From contig JAUVNS010000012.1 in NCBI GenBank assembly GCA_030599585.1, positions 89,919 through 153,918 of the forward strand: a stretch of DNA of 64,000 nucleotides, given 5' to 3'. Under the pieces are notes generated by a model, which was not told where the DNA came from, ran no database searches, and worked only from the letters and a program-made list of their open reading frames with translations. A program made the translations under genes and the position numbers. Of the stretch, positions 7,364-15,711 are shown one piece after another. This DNA comes from Promethearchaeota archaeon (GTDB lineage: Archaea; Asgardarchaeota; Lokiarchaeia; Sigyniarchaeales; SOKP01). Positions within the stretch are counted from its first letter, which is position 1. Each line of letters starts with the position of its first letter.

Positions 7364-7510
7364 TTTTTGAATTACTCTCTTTTTTAACTAATATATATTG
7401 AAATTTAAGAAAATATAAATAAATACTAGAATTAGCTAAAATTCGTCAAAGAATTAAAAAAGACTTTGAGCGTTTAATTTCTTTATTTTCAAGCTTGATC
7501 TTACTGTTTA

Positions 7511-8632
7511 TTATTTCTTCTTTAGGAATTGCTTATAAATTAGCACATAGTTTTTTACACTCACTACTTTAGGATTACGCCTAAAACTAGATGGGATAGG
7601 AGTGCTACAACGGGAACAGAGGTTTGAAGTCCGCATCCAATCTTTAAATTCATCAGCGTGGGAAGGATACCTACACTTTGGACACACAACTACTCCCCGT
7701 CCTCTATCTTCAGGAAGTTTTGGTAATTTAAAACAAAAGATGCACTTAAAATCCTCTAACGTTAAATACGATGCCCTTGGCCTAAAATTAGTCAGATTTC
7801 GAACCTTTGGAGTCGATTTGACTTTAGTTGTACGAGAAATATTTGAAGTTTTAGTTCTAGTAGTTTGTCTACGTGATGTGGGTGTTATTCTTGATGATTT
7901 AGTTCTTGAGCTTGATGTACGCGTAGTTGTCCTAGTAGAGGGAGTTGGATTAGTGACCCTCGTTGTCCGTACACGTTGTCTCTGTGTTGTAGGTGAGGTC
8001 AAATTATTAATCGTTCTAGTACGGTTTGCAATATAATCACGAGTTAATGTTGGTAATGATGAGCTTGTACTAGCAAATCCAAACACTATTACTATTAAAA
8101 TTGTAGCTAATAATAGAAGTAAGAGATTCAAATCCAATGGAAAACTTTCGTTAACGCTGTAAAAACTTATCCAATAGGTTAAAATGAAAATTAAAACAGA
8201 GAAGGATAGAATATATCCCAAGGTTCTCGCTTTTACTGCTTTTGTTCCAAAATATATTACGTTGTATTTTTTAAAACAGCGATATAGAGAGTAAGAGCCA
8301 AATATTATAAAAGGAAAAGCAAAAATAAGGCTCCATAAACTAAAATATAGACCTCCAAGTAGATTCTCTCCTAATACTCCTGTGTAAAAACCCCAAATAG
8401 AATAAAAAATTCCAATACCTAAAGGAACAATGACAAAAAATGCGGTATTATGTGGTGAATTAAACTCACGGTGACGTTTAATGTTTTCAAATATTTTTAA
8501 TGTAAAAATTAACCATAACCCAATTAATAACCAAGTTGCAAAATTAGTAAAAGAATAAGTGAGCAAACCATGAATTACACCAATAATCAGAAATGCGGTA
8601 AATATTATTGTTAAAATTTTATTTTTAACCAT
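7511..8632 (-). CDS. Polytopic (~6 TM) membrane protein with C-terminal RING-type zinc finger; putative E3 ligase
   Basis: Six hydrophobic segments in the first ~190 aa, then a Thr/Ser/Arg-rich linker, then CIFC-x16-CPKC-x4-H-x2-E-x3-W-x6-CSRC. Last gene of the Ubl-E1-E2-JAB run. Confidence 0.75.
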   Translation of the reverse strand: MVKNKILTIIFTAFLIIGVIHGLLTYSFTNFATWLLIGLWLIFTLKIFENIKRHREFNSPHNTAFFVIVPLGIGIFYSIWGFYTGVLGENLLGGLYFSLWSLIFAFPFIIFGSYSLYRCFKKYNVIYFGTKAVKARTLGYILSFSVLIFILTYWISFYSVNESFPLDLNLLLLLLATILIVIVFGFASTSSSLPTLTRDYIANRTRTINNLTSPTTQRQRVRTTRVTNPTPSTRTTTRTSSSRTKSSRITPTSRRQTTRTKTSNISRTTKVKSTPKVRNLTNFRPRASYLTLEDFKCIFCFKLPKLPEDRGRGVVVCPKCRYPSHADEFKDWMRTSNLCSRCSTPIPSSFRRNPKVVSVKNYVLIYKQFLKKK

Positions 8633-8663
8633 GATTTGATATCACCAAAGATGTTTTTTATCT

Positions 8664-9488
8664 TTATTCATCATATTCTAAATATGCTGGTTTTCCATGA
8701 ATAATTGGGTTCATGAATTCCAAAATTTCTGGTAACATTCTCACATCTAAATGCCCCTTAATATCAAAAGGCACTGAGAACCACTTCCGAGTTTTAAAAT
8801 TTGCGCGATAAATTTCAAAACCAAAAGATTTCCCGTTAATTTGATATGGATCGATGACGAGTGCTACAGCTTTATTCCACAATTTCTGATACCTTGCCTG
8901 AGTTCCTAAATCTTCTCTTGACATGAAGCAGCCGTAACTCGGATGGGAATGATACCAGCCTGTAATAAAAAGCCCCTTTTTTTTAATATCTCTGAAAGCT
9001 CTCACATAATTCTTATAATCCTTTATTTCAGCATAAACCGCGGTCCCATGTCCCATTGGATAAGCATCCTCCAAGTGTAAGACTCCTTTAGCACTATCAT
9101 AGTTCCCTGCGAGTAAACCTATTACTTCCACCCAATCATCTCTAGGTATTTTAGAATTAGCATATTTTAAAGAATGGCTCGCGATCTTAAGAATTGCTTT
9201 TGTAGTGATAGCTATCTTAGCTTTAGTTCTCTCGTTACTAGCTACAGTTTTTACTGGTTCCATGGGGATGGGTTCAAGTTTGACTTTATTTGAATGAATA
9301 ATCGGCTTCGCTTTGATAATCTCAGTTGTTATTTCTTCTTGTAATTCTTCTAATTGTAACTCAGTGTATACTTCTTCAAGTAATTCTTTTTTAATTTTCT
9401 CTTTAATTTTTTGTTTTATAGCATCTCTGATTGATTCGCTATTCTTTTCATCGATATTCATTCTAGGTTCACCATTTATCCTTGGCAT
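8664..9488 (-). CDS. JAB/MPN+ metalloprotease (Rpn11/CSN5-like deubiquitinase/maturase)
   Basis: EVIGLLAG...GWYHSHPSYGCFMSREDLGTQ...VALVIDP is an intact JAMM motif; charged N-terminal extension. Confidence 0.92.
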   Translation of the reverse strand: MPRINGEPRMNIDEKNSESIRDAIKQKIKEKIKKELLEEVYTELQLEELQEEITTEIIKAKPIIHSNKVKLEPIPMEPVKTVASNERTKAKIAITTKAILKIASHSLKYANSKIPRDDWVEVIGLLAGNYDSAKGVLHLEDAYPMGHGTAVYAEIKDYKNYVRAFRDIKKKGLFITGWYHSHPSYGCFMSREDLGTQARYQKLWNKAVALVIDPYQINGKSFGFEIYRANFKTRKWFSVPFDIKGHLDVRMLPEILEFMNPIIHGKPAYLEYDE

Positions 9489-9996
9489 ACTTCTTTACTA
9501 AATTTTTAACTTTTTTATCAAAAAATTTCGGATTTTTCATCATTTCTATAGCTGCTTTTTTATTAAACACATCAGTCGGATTAACATATTTTCCTCGAGT
9601 GTTTAACATAGCAATTATTGCATGAACAACTGTAACCGCTGTTTTTGAAGGACTCCATCCTCCTTTTTTGCCAATTAGAGACGGATCTACTAAAGCTAAG
9701 CAAATATTTCTTTGTCCTTTATATTCACTTGGCTTTGGCCAAAAATTTGGGTGCCATATTGGAGTATGCAATCTAACAAAAGGAGGCTGTTTAGGATATT
9801 GAATGGGAAACCTCATTTCTAATTTAAACAATCCTCCAGCATAGGCAGTGCCTTTAGGGCCTTTAATCAATACAGCTAAGTGATCGATACTCTTTTTTTT
9901 TGGATTAAATGGCTTCAATTGAATAATAGTACCCTGTTTTAGCAACTTTTTTAGTCCCGCAAAATCTCGGGAAACTCGACTACTTCTTATACTCAT
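9469..9996 (-). CDS. Ubiquitin-conjugating enzyme E2
   Basis: IKGPKGTAYAGGLF, FPIQYPKQPP, IWHPN, catalytic NICL and WSPS motifs. Confidence 0.93.
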   Translation of the reverse strand: MSIRSSRVSRDFAGLKKLLKQGTIIQLKPFNPKKKSIDHLAVLIKGPKGTAYAGGLFKLEMRFPIQYPKQPPFVRLHTPIWHPNFWPKPSEYKGQRNICLALVDPSLIGKKGGWSPSKTAVTVVHAIIAMLNTRGKYVNPTDVFNKKAAIEMMKNPKFFDKKVKNLVKKYAKDKW

Positions 9997-10051
9997 ATTC
10001 TTAACCCCGTTTTTTTTATTATATTTTAAAATTATGTTTTGAATTAAATTA

Positions 10052-11284
10052 TTATTTAATTTTTAAGGTTACATGAATTTCTCCGCCTTTAAACCCCGCA
10101 ACGGTTAGAAATTCGTAATTCCTTAAATTATTTTGAGTTGGGTTTTGCTCTAAATCTAAAACAATAATATCATTAAAATCCAATAGAGTTATTATCGGTT
10201 CAAATTCAGAATCCAATTCAAATCCATTTCTTTCTAGCGTATTAATTATATTTACGCAAGGTGAACTATCTCTCATTTTAATGGAAACTCGTCTTGCACT
10301 TTTACCACATTGAGAACATTCTGGATTTCTCTTCTTTTCAATGTGGTGTAATTTCATAGTCATCGCATTAAATATAATGTAATTTTTGATGGGCTCACCT
10401 AAGCCCTTGTGACCTTTTTCCCAATGAAGGATTTTAACCGCTTCATGAGATTGTAATGCTGAAATAGTTGCGTTAATCGTAATGATGCCAGGATCGTGGC
10501 GATCAATAATTTTTACGATATCATCTTCAGTATATTCAGGTAAAAAATTATGCTTTATTACATACTCATTCGCAACTTTTTGAATAAATCTAATATCTTC
10601 GATATTTTTAGGATTCGGATCTTTATCAAATTTCTCTTTAAAGGCCATATCCCCTTTAAAAACGCAATGAATTCTTTTTCGAGGGATACCAACTACTGTA
10701 CAAGCTGCCATATCATCATTTTGGATGTCGGGTAATGGATTACATTCATAACATGCATTTTGAAATGGAAATATCGTATATACATGACCATAATAACCAG
10801 AAACCCCTCCATCTACCAAAGGTTTCTTAAATCTAATGCATTGAGCGTTTAAGTTCAACCTTGCATTCATTGAATCAAGACCTCCAATTACAACATCTGA
10901 AGCGTGATAGAGTGCTGGATTTAATCTTTCTAAGGATGTATGATACCCTTTAACAATAATATTAGGATTAATTTCGACCAATTTTCTAGCAGCAATAAAT
11001 GCTTTAGGTTCTCCTAACTTTGCTCCAGCAAAGAGAATTTGACGATTCAGGTTAGAATGTTCAATTATATCAATATCAACAAGATCTATATGACCAACGC
11101 CCAACATACTTAAATTCTTGGCAATTTCACATCCCAAACCACCAACCCCAGCGATTAACACTCTTGAATTTTTAACTAATTTCTGGGACCAACCTTCTAA
11201 ACGAAATTGGCGATCGTATAAGTCTCTCTCTTCTTCTGACATTCCTTTTGTAAAAAAATCTGAATCCTTATGCAATATTATCAC
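10052..11284 (-). CDS. Ubiquitin-like activating enzyme E1 (UBA2/UBA3-like)
   Basis: LYDRQ, GVGGLGCE, SNLNRQ, GLDS..AR, ACYEC, catalytic AACT..GIPR...HC and C-terminal CSQC zinc motifs. Confidence 0.93.
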   Translation of the reverse strand: MIILHKDSDFFTKGMSEEERDLYDRQFRLEGWSQKLVKNSRVLIAGVGGLGCEIAKNLSMLGVGHIDLVDIDIIEHSNLNRQILFAGAKLGEPKAFIAARKLVEINPNIIVKGYHTSLERLNPALYHASDVVIGGLDSMNARLNLNAQCIRFKKPLVDGGVSGYYGHVYTIFPFQNACYECNPLPDIQNDDMAACTVVGIPRKRIHCVFKGDMAFKEKFDKDPNPKNIEDIRFIQKVANEYVIKHNFLPEYTEDDIVKIIDRHDPGIITINATISALQSHEAVKILHWEKGHKGLGEPIKNYIIFNAMTMKLHHIEKKRNPECSQCGKSARRVSIKMRDSSPCVNIINTLERNGFELDSEFEPIITLLDFNDIIVLDLEQNPTQNNLRNYEFLTVAGFKGGEIHVTLKIK

Positions 11285-11364
11285 CTTTAATATTAATCAA
11301 AAAAATAAAAAAATTGAAGGGCTTAATGCCCTTATCATATATTATATTTTATGAAAAGAATTAT

Positions 11365-11697
11365 TTAAAAGTATCCAGCTGTACTCGCTGGGATCAAAAG
11401 AATATCGTCGCCGTTACTAACACTATAGTCTTTTAACTGGCTACCTTCATCCATTGTTACGCCACCAGAACTAATGTGAAAGTCATCTGGATCAAGTCCA
11501 AATAAATTTCCAAGCGTTTGTTTGATATCACTTATGTTATTTGCGTCGTTTACAGTCAACTTTTCCTTCTTTTCACCAGGACCAATAGTTGACATGAAAT
11601 ATAAAGTCAATTTTTTGCCTGTTGAGGGAACTTTGCTTGATGGGGTTTTAGAGCTAACTGGTTCTAATTCCTCATCAAAATCTTCATCAAAACTCAT
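11365..11697 (-). CDS. Ubiquitin-like modifier with acidic N-tail; precursor ends ...ASTAG-YF
   Basis: Beta-grasp pattern (ISDIK...FGLDPDDFHISSGG..MDEGSQLKDYSV..GDDILLIP). First gene of the E1-E2-JAB operon. Confidence 0.88.
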   Translation of the reverse strand: MSFDEDFDEELEPVSSKTPSSKVPSTGKKLTLYFMSTIGPGEKKEKLTVNDANNISDIKQTLGNLFGLDPDDFHISSGGVTMDEGSQLKDYSVSNGDDILLIPASTAGYF

Positions 11698-11958: not shown

Positions 11959-12642
11959 ATGCTTATGAACACTCCGGATAACCTTCAATCTATTGTTTGT
12001 GATATCATAAAGGAATATCTAAAAAAGAAACCTTTCTTTTCAATAGAAGATATAGTGGTGTTCATCGCTAATAGAGTGAGATCGAATCCTAATCTAAATA
12101 GGAACAGCATTGAACTCATTATTAAAAATCTTATAAAAAAAAGAATTCTGATCCCTGGAACCAAATTAATGAAGAATAATATAATAGAATTACCAATACG
12201 AAACGAAATTTACAACCATATTAAGAAACACCCATCGAACATTAATGAAATAATGAAAGCAATCAATATTGGAAGCAACCAAGCGCTCTGGCATTTGTCC
12301 ACGTTAGAGAAGTTTAGATTTACGCGATCAAAAAAAATCAATAATCAAAGAATGATTTTTGAATATGAATCTAATCCCGATCTAGATGAGTTGTATTACT
12401 ATTTGAAACAGGATGTTGTGCAAGATATTATCAACCTTCTGAAAGAAGAACACAAAACCTTTAAAATCACGGAAATAGCTGCGAATTTAAAAAGAAATTA
12501 CAATACTGTAAAGAAATATCTTGAAATATTAAGAAATCTGAAAATAATAAAAATTGAAAAAAATAAAAAAAGAGTTCTATATAGAATAGACCTAGAGAAA
12601 TATGACAATCTCAAGAAATCAATTATTGATAATGAACTATAA
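11959..12642 (+). CDS. Double winged-helix transcriptional regulator (ArsR-like)
   Basis: RNEIYNHIKKHP..INEI...ALWHLSTL and ITEIAANLKRNYNTVKKYLEIL HTH segments; divergent from the Ubl operon. Confidence 0.75.
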   Translation: MLMNTPDNLQSIVCDIIKEYLKKKPFFSIEDIVVFIANRVRSNPNLNRNSIELIIKNLIKKRILIPGTKLMKNNIIELPIRNEIYNHIKKHPSNINEIMKAINIGSNQALWHLSTLEKFRFTRSKKINNQRMIFEYESNPDLDELYYYLKQDVVQDIINLLKEEHKTFKITEIAANLKRNYNTVKKYLEILRNLKIIKIEKNKKRVLYRIDLEKYDNLKKSIIDNEL

Positions 12643-12721: not shown

Positions 12722-13516
12722 ATGAAGAAAAAATATAGAGTTTTAAATATTATAACTCTTTATGTTGTTTTCGCTTTAATCTATTTGACTTTCTTCCTAT
12801 TACAACTAGATAGTTTACCATTATTCCTCTTTCTAACTATTGGGAGTGTTGCTGTATTATCGACAGGTACGATCTATACCGTCGTTCAATATAAAAGCAG
12901 CCCAGCGAAGAGGATAAAAAAAGACAAATATTATCAAAAGCCAAAATCTATCAAAAGAACTTCGAGTGAACTGATTGAGGATTACCTTGAAGCTATGCCA
13001 TTAATAGATCAATACGCTGACACCACTGAAACCTTTGAAAATATTGATTCAATCGATGATTATATTTTTACTTTTTTCACTCAGGAAGTATTAGATAAAA
13101 TCGATTTGTTAGGGTTTTCAAAAATGGATAAAATCTTTTTTATCAGAGAGATGTTGTATTTTGATGCTGATGAGAGAAAGCAACTTATTGATGATATTTT
13201 GAAAAATAAAGATTTAATTGACGAACAGATAACATACAACCCTCCATTAACCACAATTGGAATGGATGATAAAGTTCGCGTTTATGTAAGATCCTTAGTC
13301 GAACCGGGGGAGAGAACCAAAATCATCATTATTGAAACCTCCGAATTAATAGATATAATCAAGGAGCAAGTTGGAATTCTTTTTGATTATAGTTTGGAAG
13401 ATTTTCATTTATCTTCGGGGGGAATTCTCCTTTCCACAGAAAAGCAAATAAAGGACTATTTTATTGACGATGATGACGAAATTGCTCTGATTCCGTCGAG
13501 AAAAAAAGATAAATAG
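12722..13516 (+). CDS. Membrane-anchored (2 TM) protein with C-terminal ubiquitin-like domain lacking terminal Gly
   Basis: Two N-terminal TM helices. The C-terminal EPGE...IKEQVGILFD...DFHLSSGG...IKDY...DDEIALIP aligns with the two Ubls; ends PSRKKDK. Confidence 0.8.
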   Translation: MKKKYRVLNIITLYVVFALIYLTFFLLQLDSLPLFLFLTIGSVAVLSTGTIYTVVQYKSSPAKRIKKDKYYQKPKSIKRTSSELIEDYLEAMPLIDQYADTTETFENIDSIDDYIFTFFTQEVLDKIDLLGFSKMDKIFFIREMLYFDADERKQLIDDILKNKDLIDEQITYNPPLTTIGMDDKVRVYVRSLVEPGERTKIIIIETSELIDIIKEQVGILFDYSLEDFHLSSGGILLSTEKQIKDYFIDDDDEIALIPSRKKDK

Positions 13517-13532
13517 AATGAGATTTTTTTTC

Positions 13533-15191
13533 CTAGAGATTTCTAATTTCTTGAAACCTACTAATAACCCATTTTTTATCCAAGGCAGCTATGAATGGTG
13601 CAAACCGAGGACCCCTTGTTCTTCCAAGAAACAATTGATAGAGTAGTTCAAAGAATTGATTCATATCCTTACGATTTATTTCTGCTTCTTCTCGTAAGGT
13701 TATCATTTTTTGTTTTATATCTTCCTCAGTCCAGTTTGTTTCTTCGAGTGCTTGTCCAAGATCTAAAACAAAGTTACGTATCTTTTCGTTATACTGCCTT
13801 AAAACAACTGGCGAAACGTGTTTGCTTAATTGTATTCTGAGATGTTTTGGAGAATATTCTGATATTACCCAATTCTTAGCCAGATTTAATCTTTTTTGAA
13901 TATGATCAGTAATCTCCTTTGATGGGCTTTCTTTTAACTTTTCTGTTGCTATTAATTTTTCAATAACTTGTTCAGTTCCCTTTTGGTCAGGAGTTACTAG
14001 TTGGGAATGAATAAGAGCAGTTTGATAGTCAAATTGGAATCCTCTATATTCTGGGATGTCATTATAAAACGCAATTTCATAACTCCTTTGAATTGTATGA
14101 AGTTCTGCTGAATCGGTAAATGATTCTATTTTATGATAGATTCTCTGGGCTCGATCGTATTCTGCAATATAACTCGGGATCTTATCTAAACCCAGAATAA
14201 TGCGTCTTTTTGGAGGTGTTTTGAGATATTTATATTTCAATACTTCTGGTTCAGCATATTCTAACCATTTTGTTGGTGTGAACCCGATGAAACCTGAGCT
14301 TGTCATATCTCCAAAATCTTTTCGACCTTCTGAATAGCCAACCCATTCATTCCAAAATCCATATGGCCCTTTATGATTTAGGACAGATTCTAGAACTTCA
14401 ATACAACTATCACGGGATCCTCCTGGTGTAGCATGGTCCTTTCCATACGGTTCAAAATGTATATCCAGAACGTACCATATTGCCAACCATTCAAGCCGCC
14501 AAGTTAATTTTCCCTTGCTAATATCTGACCATCCGTCGTTCTTGCATTCATCACAGAAATAATGAACTTGGTAGGTATCAAGATTAACTTCCAAAGCTTT
14601 TGTTGTACCTATTCGATTACAATGCTGACATAGTGGATTAATGGGAATCCAATTCTCGGGAAAAGGATTTTCTTTACGAAATTTATTTAAGATTTCTCGA
14701 ACCTTGTCCTTTTTGTTAATAAGCTCGATTACTACATTTTTCATTCTCTCCTGCTGATATAATTCATGAGTTCTGATGATCTGAATGCCTCGTCCAAATT
14801 TGGGCATTGGTACTCCAAAATCTTTCCAATAATAATCCACCCAGGTTTCTTTTTGATTGTTAGGAGAAGGAACATCGATTAAACGCCAGTTAATAAATTC
14901 TTTTGCTTTCTCCAGATCTGGAAACGCATTTAATTGAGCAAGTTTCCCCTTCCATGGGTCTGATGTATAGAGAATTAAATTGTGTGTGGCTTGATATCCC
15001 CGATTTTGGAGTTCATTTACAATCGCATTCGCAAGAACAATCTCTCCTCTTAAGCGTCCGATGTGTTGTTGACCAGATACAGAAATTCCACAATTGCAAT
15101 TAAAATCTTTTATTCCTAGCCAATTCTTTATTAGATCGGATGTTAATTTATCTATCCAATGCTGAGGTTGTATCTTTGGCTTCTCTGTCAT
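13533..15191 (-). CDS. lysS: Lysine--tRNA ligase, class I
   Basis: HWID, SGQQHIGRLRG, KLTWRLEW, EPYGKDH...GGS and C-terminal GPR motifs; KMSSS appears as DMTSS. Confidence 0.93.
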   Translation of the reverse strand: MTEKPKIQPQHWIDKLTSDLIKNWLGIKDFNCNCGISVSGQQHIGRLRGEIVLANAIVNELQNRGYQATHNLILYTSDPWKGKLAQLNAFPDLEKAKEFINWRLIDVPSPNNQKETWVDYYWKDFGVPMPKFGRGIQIIRTHELYQQERMKNVVIELINKKDKVREILNKFRKENPFPENWIPINPLCQHCNRIGTTKALEVNLDTYQVHYFCDECKNDGWSDISKGKLTWRLEWLAIWYVLDIHFEPYGKDHATPGGSRDSCIEVLESVLNHKGPYGFWNEWVGYSEGRKDFGDMTSSGFIGFTPTKWLEYAEPEVLKYKYLKTPPKRRIILGLDKIPSYIAEYDRAQRIYHKIESFTDSAELHTIQRSYEIAFYNDIPEYRGFQFDYQTALIHSQLVTPDQKGTEQVIEKLIATEKLKESPSKEITDHIQKRLNLAKNWVISEYSPKHLRIQLSKHVSPVVLRQYNEKIRNFVLDLGQALEETNWTEEDIKQKMITLREEAEINRKDMNQFFELLYQLFLGRTRGPRFAPFIAALDKKWVISRFQEIRNL

Positions 15192-15324: not shown

Positions 15325-15711
15325 TCAACCAGCAATGCTAGCTGGAATTAATAATATATCATCTCCATCAGCTACATTGTAATCGTTAAGGTTAGAGAAT
15401 TCATCCATGGTAACTCCCCCTGAAGACAAATGAAAATCAGATGGATCTAAAGCAAATAAATTCGCTACAGTATCTTTGATGTCTCCAATTTTATTCCCTG
15501 TGAATACAAGCAATTTTTGTTTTTTCTCCCCTGGTCCTATAGTGGATAGAAAAAAAACTGAAATCTTTTTTCCTTCAGGAGACTTTTTGCGTTCTGGGGT
15601 CTTAACTCTAAAATCTTTTGTAGGGTGCTTTGAAGACGGATCGTCAAAATCTTCATCTAAGCTTTCATCAAAATCCTCATCGAATTCTTCGTCGAACTCC
15701 TCTTCATCCAT
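15325..15711 (-). CDS. Second ubiquitin-like modifier, mature C-terminus ...ASIAG
   Basis: Close paralogue of 11365..11697 (STIGPGEKK, DFHLSSGGVTMDE, GDDILLIPAS) with a longer acidic DEEF/DEDF tail. Confidence 0.88.
   Translation of the reverse strand: MDEEEFDEEFDEDFDESLDEDFDDPSSKHPTKDFRVKTPERKKSPEGKKISVFFLSTIGPGEKKQKLLVFTGNKIGDIKDTVANLFALDPSDFHLSSGGVTMDEFSNLNDYNVADGDDILLIPASIAG

Follow-up and report, generated by a model that had tools for sequence, protein, structure and literature searches.

Operons that combine genes for ubiquitin (Ub), its activating enzyme (E1), its conjugating enzyme (E2), a small soluble RING protein and a JAMM metalloprotease are known in Aigarchaeota and Asgard archaea (PMC3082918, PMC5654768, PMC6043591). 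In Candidatus Caldiarchaeum subterraneum the RING protein, srfp (CSUB_C1477), has the motif C-X2-C-X11-C-X2-C-X4-H-X2-C-X10-C-X2-C (PMC3082918) and has been identified experimentally, in a reconstituted system, as a ubiquitin ligase (E3) (PMC5654768), while the Rpn11 of this organism is a precedent for the trimming of a modifier precursor (PMC6043591). A Helarchaeial cascade of E1, E2 and soluble RING has likewise been reconstituted (bioRxiv 10.1101/2023.07.25.550441). Here we describe a related operon for a ubiquitin-like modifier (Ubl) in a 64,000-nt stretch (~32% G+C; hereafter the window) of an Asgard genome, contig JAUVNS010000012.1, in which the RING domain belongs to a protein with six transmembrane (TM) helices, referred to below as TM-RING. 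On computed evidence, namely the genes present and their catalytic motifs, the fold of the RING, and the patterns of conservation, synteny and topology, we conclude that the operon probably specifies a self-contained, eukaryote-type Ubl conjugation pathway with a dedicated E3 built into the cytoplasmic membrane.

The initial annotation of the window, made from the sequence alone, had described a complete operon of five co-oriented and tightly spaced genes for Ubl, E1, E2, JAMM and RING proteins. This description holds, since all five open reading frames lie on the minus strand at the coordinates it gave, and the first four are supported by Pfam. The features are as follows.

11365..11697, minus strand: Ubl precursor, 110 aa, with a beta-grasp core between an acidic disordered N-terminal tail that carries SKTP motifs and a C-terminal ...LLIPASTAG plus YF (PF00240, 22.1 bits)
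10052..11284, minus strand: eukaryote-type E1 (ThiF fold), 410 aa, with Cys195 in CT..PR..HC and a C-terminal extension (ThiF, 193.5 bits)
9469..9996, minus strand: E2 (UBC fold), 175 aa, with H82-P83-N84 and C99 (UQ_con, 88 bits)
8664..9488, minus strand: JAMM/MPN+ metalloprotease, 274 aa, with E121, H180-x-H182, S190 and D193 (PF01398 (JAB), 50.9 bits)
8063..8632, minus strand: TM-RING protein (373 aa; whole gene 7511..8632), residues 1-190, six-helix membrane domain, predicted N-in/C-in from hydropathy, AlphaFold2 (AF2) and the alternation of Lys and Arg
7781..8062, minus strand: TM-RING protein, residues 191-284, positively charged Thr/Arg/Ser-rich tether, disordered by composition and by predicted local distance difference test (pLDDT) scores of 31-48
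7514..7780, minus strand: TM-RING protein, residues 285-373, srfp-type RING finger and then a C-terminal helix, from AF2, Foldseek and invariant ligands

Gaps of 80 nt separate Ubl from E1, 55 nt E1 from E2 and 31 nt JAMM from TM-RING, and the start of the JAMM gene overlaps the E2 stop by 20 nt.

The C-terminal zinc domain of TM-RING is, by its predicted structure, a RING with the RING/U-box fold, a cross-brace binuclear treble clef in which two zinc loops are combined with a short beta-hairpin and a central helix. Its motif reads C297-x2-C300-x16-C317-x2-C320-x4-H325-x2-E328-x10-C339-x2-C342. A Foldseek search of the full-length model against the PDB yielded no match at E <= 1e-3, only short local RING hits, after which the domain was folded alone (AF2, pLDDT 88.5). 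Its best 50 Foldseek/VIA matches in the PDB consisted of RING and U-box domains plus a few RING-like fingers from IFT-A and GATOR2; the top match was 3lrq (E 4e-3, probability 1.0, TM-score 0.57), and the HRD1 RING (6f98) was among the matches. The doubt raised in the initial annotation, that the Cys-rich domain might not be a RING fold, is thus answered by the AF2 model and Foldseek.

Conservation was read from 105 RING domains, that is, 97 from the TM-RING family and 8 from soluble cousins. Seven Cys/His ligands and Trp332, the Trp of the RING helix with which E2s are contacted, are invariant throughout this set, and Prok-RING_1 is the Pfam family matched most often (67 of the 105 domains, best E 8e-07). 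At the sixth ligand position, where the initial annotation had pointed out the Glu (H-x2-E) that is E328 of TM-RING, the residue is Glu in all 97 TM-family domains and His in all 8 soluble cousins, and such exclusive alternation of Glu and His is the pattern expected of a metal ligand. Glutamate is able to bind zinc, and the RING/U-box superfamily also includes the U-boxes, which have no metal ligands at all. Judged from this alignment, Glu328 most likely still completes zinc site 1.

Ahead of the RING, hydropathy marks six segments (residues 6-24, 30-48, 64-82, 92-110, 137-155 and 170-188), and AF2 places helices at 2-25, 28-57, 60-84, 99-121, 135-160 and 168-186 with pLDDT 70-93. Lys and Arg, counted together in relatives in which all six helices were called, are frequent at the N-terminus, in loops 2 and 4 and on the C-terminal side, whereas loops 1, 3 and 5 have almost none; because of this alternation, the positive-inside rule predicts that both termini and the zinc domain face the cytoplasm. 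The residues invariant among 22 sequences of the membrane domain include S59, N62, W80, G81, T84, W100, P107 and Y127, and by this measure the domain appears conserved beyond the needs of an anchor. Of 95 residues in the tether that follows, 26 are Thr, 18 Arg and 12 Ser, and AF2 models it as disordered (pLDDT 31-48). Its length and basic charge are kept in the family, while its composition differs by lineage, being rich in T/S/R, K/E/R or P/A/Q. Hydropathy, composition and the AF2 fold therefore agree with the earlier description of the fifth protein as one with about six TM helices, a long T/S/R-rich linker and a C-terminal RING.

Compared with known folds, the TM domain matched none, and the Hrd1 score lay within noise. 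A profile search against all PDB sequences returned just compositional hits, of the last TM helix and charged tether to ATP synthase subunit b. A feature search of the ESM Atlas with residues 1-200 gave no usable match, and an Atlas fold search found only the protein's own Promethearchaeota family (TM-score 0.47). The remaining rows of the fold search (TM-score 0.20-0.27, mostly eukaryotic RING proteins, including a DUF2921+RING family) were too low and were not used. In this genome a RING-less duplicate of the membrane domain was looked for and not found at E <= 1e-5.

The association of TM-RING with the conjugation genes is stable. Synteny was read in 80 close and 20 distant loci, some of the latter from other Asgard classes. 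JAMM stands directly upstream of TM-RING on the same strand in 77/77 close loci, and the whole order Ubl-E1-E2-JAMM-TMRING is present in 63 of the 64 close loci with enough flank. TM-RING follows E2 and JAMM in 20/20 distant loci, at 23-40% TM-RING identity, and in one distant lineage the order is split into E2-JAMM-TMRING plus Ubl-E1. Linkage, the absence of which in relatives the initial annotation had named as a reason to abandon its proposal, is therefore kept in close and distant loci alike. TM-RING is also the fastest-evolving member of the operon, with a median identity of 58% versus 89% for E2.

The distribution of the family is narrow. At E <= 0.01 a search of 5.8 billion clusters gave 367 proteins, every one unnamed or 'hypothetical' and lacking a Pfam domain, and at E <= 1e-3 there were 133 representatives among 1.84 billion. 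A match at E <= 1e-5 was found in 138 of 301 sampled Asgard genomes, a tally that takes in weaker matches covering the RING domain only. By family, matches were found in 59/68 genomes of the organism's own family, 6/7 of the sister family and, for example, 26/28, 18/21 and 8/11 of families in other classes; some other Asgard families searched at this threshold gave no match (e.g. 0/76).

Two loci from these searches are described separately. In a complete 4.36-Mb genome of the sister family, the operon is absent from the 19-kb stretch around the match (L021), where a RING relic of ~40 residues with an in-frame stop (L021 ~9199-9321; G032:C1:594201-594320) lies between two unrelated genes; from its sequence, it seems to be what is left of a TM-RING gene that was lost. 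The contig DATKTW010000176.1 (L047), labelled 'Candidatus Nanopelagicaceae bacterium', carries a TM-RING gene with 82% identity; almost certainly this contig is Asgard DNA that was mis-binned into an actinobacterial metagenome-assembled genome.

Co-folding of the operon E2 with the RING domain and two zinc ions, a modelling step that the initial annotation had suggested, predicted a canonical interface with a score of 0.61, against 0.19 for the best control. This mark is attained by 58 of 80 solved complexes and by 2 of 110 mismatched pairs. Three runs showed 100% contact agreement, with partner pLDDT of at least 86. The predicted interface is formed by residues 3-10 of helix 1, 68-69 of loop 4 and 108-118 of loop 7 on the E2, and by residues 298-302, 328-336 and 338-343 on the RING. 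Within it lies the conserved E2-binding surface, with Ile298, the hydrophobic residue after ligand 1, in 92/105 domains, Trp332 in 105/105 and, in the loop from ligand 7 to ligand 8, Ser or Pro at position 340. The model, in which the RING sits on the operon E2 in the canonical mode, supports binding without demonstrating it. In this model E2 loop 7 is contacted by Arg341, which stands immediately ahead of the last Cys and is shared by 86 of the 105 domains; it may compensate for the absence of a basic linchpin.

Most active RINGs carry an Arg or Lys linchpin after ligand 8, which locks the charged E2 (E2~Ub); the linchpin marks active RINGs, without defining the fold. Several points stand against the reading of TM-RING as an E3. 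In the window the residue after the last Cys is Ser343, and in the TM family the position holds Asn (35), Asp (33), Ser (12) or Gly (8) and never Arg or Lys, while 7 of the 8 soluble cousins have Arg or Lys. Because the TM family has no basic linchpin, its activation of E2~Ubl may be weak or different. Glutamate is an unusual structural zinc ligand in a RING, and the co-fold sets Glu328 beside E2 residue 116, so that it may have a role in E2 contact instead of metal binding. The window domain scores just 13-18 bits on the Pfam profiles Zn_ribbon_15, Prok-RING_1 and zf-RING_2 (13-14 bits on the last two; on Prok-RING_1, 14.0 bits versus a cut-off of 29.1). On zf-RING_2, with a cut-off of 27.3 bits, the distant full-length family member P0220 reaches 29.9 and the soluble cousins 29.8-33.3, and since these pass while the window domain does not, its membership of a curated RING profile is by transitivity only. 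The co-fold itself was run with our own alignments and with zinc, departing from the calibration of the tool, and because RING and E2 are a textbook pair its score may mirror likeness to solved complexes.

The upstream genes encode enzymes with intact catalytic motifs. In the PDB the E1 best matches SAE2/UBA2 (133 bits), then UBA1 and UBA3, and its segment AACTVVGIPRKRIHC is aligned to PGCTIRNTPSEPIHC, the segment that holds the catalytic Cys in human SAE2/UBA2, from which Cys195 is identified as the putative catalytic Cys. This alignment, with the 193.5 bits on ThiF, fits the UBA2/UBA3-like E1 with a catalytic CT...PR...HC that had been annotated. The annotated E2, with HPN and Cys, is supported by the UQ_con score of 88 bits and by alignment to solved E2s (Ubc15, UBE2R, UBE2T), to which H82-P83-N84 and the catalytic C99 correspond. 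The HPN triad and C99 are invariant in 11 orthologues, and a 7-residue insert separates HPN from the catalytic Cys. In the metalloprotease, E121...H180-S-H182-x7-S190-x2-D193 is present, as expected of the intact JAMM protease reported initially. Its N-terminal extension of ~85 residues (1-85) is Lys/Glu-rich and probably coiled, and differs in length between lineages; distant homologues align only from ~residue 86.

The modifier scores 22.1 bits on the Pfam ubiquitin family, just below the cut-off of 25.4, while a fused homologue reaches 29.3. Its C-terminal LLIPASTAG is invariant in 13 homologues and is followed by 0-16 variable residues, two of the homologous genes ending exactly at the Gly. 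The Gly-Gly terminus expected of the ubiquitin family is not found, the conserved end being Ala-Gly. By its sequence, then, the operon modifier would be a Ubl with a single terminal Gly and not ubiquitin proper. The invariant AG, the unconserved tails and the two genes that stop at Gly indicate that the window Ubl (...STAG-YF) is a precursor with a mature end Ala-Gly, and the operon JAMM is the probable precursor peptidase and deconjugase.

Several relatives of the modifier were found near such operons. A second Ubl paralogue of 128 aa (window 15325-15711, minus strand), with a longer acidic N-terminal tail of FDE repeats, ends ...LLIPASIAG at its stop codon and is thereby a ready-made mature form of the operon modifier; a class I lysyl-tRNA synthetase-like gene (13533-15191) lies between it and the operon. 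In another family of the order, a von Willebrand factor A (vWA) protein of 579-585 aa is encoded convergently with the TM-RING gene (L013:2225-3964, plus strand; L014:9691-11448, minus strand). It carries at its C-terminus a fused copy of the operon Ubl, ending ...STAG plus a 6-16 residue tail (VWA 26.6 bits, ubiquitin 29.3 bits), and is a natural Ubl fusion precursor. Divergent from the operon in the window are genes for a protein with two winged helix-turn-helix (wHTH) domains of ArsR/SdpR-like type (11959-12642, plus strand) and for a membrane protein with a C-terminal Ubl domain resembling the operon Ubl (TM-Ubl; 12722-13516, plus strand). As the latter ends ...IPSRKKDK, with no terminal Gly, it would not be conjugatable. 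The wHTH/TM-Ubl pair is kept in close relatives (L012, L020) and is not beside the operon in distant loci.

Elsewhere in the same genome, C34 (L032) encodes a second E2 of 169 aa (7407-7916, plus strand), 1.7 kb from a 526-aa ThiF-type E1-like gene (9625-11205, minus strand), and C47 (L036: 1453-1743, plus strand) encodes a 96-aa ubiquitin-family precursor that ends ...QAGG plus a 14-residue tail. These genes suggest a second Ubl pathway, of the Gly-Gly type, in the same organism. Three soluble RING paralogues are also present, on C3 (L033: 6562-7092, minus strand), C21 (L034: 6160-6735, plus strand) and C24 (L035: 5718-6857, minus strand); among them are a protein with a basic linchpin and with His as ligand 6, another whose N-terminal RING-H2-like finger passes zf-RING_2, and a vWA protein, Ssl1-like, in which RING-like fingers are C-terminal. 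Given the second E2 and E1-like genes, the Gly-Gly Ubl precursor and the soluble RINGs, the membrane ligase would be part of one among at least two Ubl pathways.

Every biochemical step of the operon pathway, together with its substrates and the downstream fate of the products, is what we infer from these features. JAMM would trim the Ubl precursor after ...STAG, as suggested by the invariant AG, the variable tail and the precedent of Caldiarchaeum Rpn11. The E1 would adenylate the Ubl, hold it as a thioester on Cys195 and hand it to Cys99 of the E2, transfers for which the conserved catalytic motifs argue. The six-helix protein would lie in the membrane with both ends inside and bear its srfp-type RING on a flexible basic tether of ~100 residues. 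This RING would recruit E2~Ubl by means of both zinc loops and the helix with Trp332, and Ubl would thereby be passed to proteins that lie in the membrane or at it, perhaps the ligase among them. The choice of substrates or partners would probably fall to the conserved membrane domain.

Other explanations of the TM-RING protein can be weighed against this pathway. It could be a non-catalytic membrane receptor or scaffold, with a RING-like finger that docks the E2, or E2 and JAMM, without activating E2~Ubl, much as Cue1 docks Ubc7 at the membrane in yeast. Such a role would account for the absence of an Arg/Lys linchpin throughout the TM family, in which it differs from the soluble cousins, and for the non-canonical ligand 6, and the three soluble RING cousins in the same genome could supply the catalysis. 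However, TM-RING retains the full canonical set for E2 binding (Ile298/Phe299, Trp332 and the Cys339-Cys342 loop), the Arg341 conserved in 86/105 domains contacts E2 loop 7 in the model, no other RING gene stays with the operon throughout the phylum, and U-boxes and some RINGs function without a basic linchpin, so that we regard a scaffold as unlikely. The membrane protein might instead be a target or sensor, itself modified by Ubl on its loops or tether and controlling its own abundance or signalling, perhaps with the TM-Ubl and wHTH neighbours. RING E3s commonly modify themselves, as in the autoubiquitination of Hrd1 (PMC6914336), and the divergent wHTH gene and the gene for the TM protein with a non-conjugatable Ubl adjoin the operon and are both kept in close relatives. 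In distant loci, however, that pair is not beside the operon while TM-RING always is, and the role of a target leaves the invariant E2-binding surface unexplained; we hold this explanation to be highly improbable.

The initial annotation had called the operon ERAD-like, after endoplasmic-reticulum (ER)-associated degradation. A true machine of this type would use a Hrd1-like channel or membrane-thinning domain to pull out misfolded proteins, whether of the membrane or secreted, which would then be tagged with Ubl and degraded by Cdc48 and the proteasome. A polytopic domain followed by a cytosolic RING is indeed the architecture of Hrd1 and gp78, the membrane domain appears conserved beyond anchor needs, with invariant polar and aromatic residues, and Cdc48 and the 20S proteasome are present in archaea (PMC13328587). 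Against this, genes for Cdc48, the proteasome or a Der1-like protein do not accompany the operon in the loci that were read, the Atlas search of the membrane domain yields its own family only, the RING is neither a RING-H2 as in Hrd1 nor an N-terminal RING-CH as in MARCH and Doa10, and the TM family has no Arg/Lys linchpin. A true ERAD machine is accordingly very unlikely. That the operon serves defence against viruses, as the bacterial Bil and CBASS-Cap2/Cap3 modules do, has next to no likelihood, and this reading was rejected. PADLOC models for E1-E2 match the E1 with 53.8 bits at most and one for JAB gives 18 bits, but the hits are confined to the generic adenylation domain; the E2, Ubl and TM-RING have none, and the E1 scores far better against eukaryotic SAE2, UBA1 and UBA3 (133 bits). 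Unlike a mobile defence island, the operon has stable synteny and flanking housekeeping genes, with matches in 138/301 Asgard genomes, and neither presence/absence variation among close strains nor a defence-island setting was seen. The pathway with a dedicated membrane E3 is therefore the explanation that we prefer.

In the searchable literature we found no description of a six-TM, tethered, Glu-variant RING of Asgard operons, although an earlier mention in Spang 2015 or Burroughs 2011 is possible. A six-helix RING protein in an Asgard operon implies that membrane-bound ubiquitin ligases probably predate eukaryotes. [quoted passage not shown] Membrane-protein ubiquitylation would then be pre-eukaryotic, and the TM-RING family a surviving representative, even a relative, of the ancestral membrane E3. 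If this were true, the logic behind ERAD, MARCH/Tul1-type ligases and ubiquitin-dependent cargo sorting would have been in place before eukaryotes. TM-RING also bears on the origin of eukaryotic membrane E3s. While the characterised archaeal operons use small soluble RINGs, a conserved operon-encoded membrane ligase gives the Asgard system a place of action. The purpose of archaeal ubiquitylation thereby becomes testable, by looking for membrane proteins with an Ala-Gly remnant and for their fate at the proteasome, Cdc48 or ESCRT. Because it naturally lacks a basic linchpin and has Glu where a zinc ligand is expected, the RING of this protein also informs the minimal requirements of RINGs.

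Among eukaryotic ligases, Hrd1/gp78 and MARCH/Doa10 likewise join a multi-pass membrane domain to a cytosolic RING, and the ligand order of RING-CH (C4HC3) resembles the C4-H-x-C2 of TM-RING. No relationship of sequence or fold was detected between the membrane domains. The RING of Hrd1/gp78 is a RING-H2 (C3H2C3), while the order in TM-RING is C4-H-E-C2; in MARCH/Doa10 the RING is N-terminal, ahead of the TM helices, while that of TM-RING is C-terminal on a long tether, and the RING-CH spacing is x1/x7 as opposed to x2/x4 (C-x2-C-x4-H). Since archaea have no ER, the site of action of TM-RING would be the cell membrane. What survives of the ERAD-like description is thus the combination of polytopic domain and cytosolic RING; the TM fold and the RING type do not bear it out, no connection of the operon with Cdc48, the proteasome or retrotranslocation was seen, and ERAD-like working of TM-RING is to be taken as an analogy of architecture only.

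Closer to the archaeal systems, the Prok-RING_1 family (PF14446) of Burroughs, Iyer and Aravind (2011) reportedly occurs in Ub/E1/E2/JAB neighbourhoods, and some of its bacterial members are said to have TM helices; its description is not known to include the six-TM domain, the tether or the Glu ligand of TM-RING. The Helarchaeial E3, which belongs to an ESCRT/ubiquitin cluster, differs from TM-RING in that it is soluble, recognises UEV-Vps23 through an N-terminal loop and acts with a Gly-Gly ubiquitin, no membrane domain having been reported. The srfp of Candidatus Caldiarchaeum subterraneum is, like TM-RING, coded in an operon with Ubl, E1, E2 and JAMM (Rpn11). Srfp is small and soluble, whereas TM-RING is a protein of 373 aa with an N-terminal six-helix domain and a disordered tether of ~100 aa, and the Caldiarchaeum modifier ends in Gly-Gly, whereas the operon Ubl here ends in Ala-Gly. 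Ligand 6 is Cys in srfp and Glu in TM-RING, loop 1 has 11 versus 16 residues, and R69 has been singled out in srfp (PMC5654768), while TM-RING has no basic linchpin. The spacings x2, x2, x4, x2, x10 and x2 are nevertheless identical, the E2-binding Ile and Trp are common to both, and the Pro motifs of E2 loops 4 and 7 are present. On these sequence features, the RING of the TM-RING protein is of the archaeal srfp type, and not of the RING-H2 or RING-CH type.

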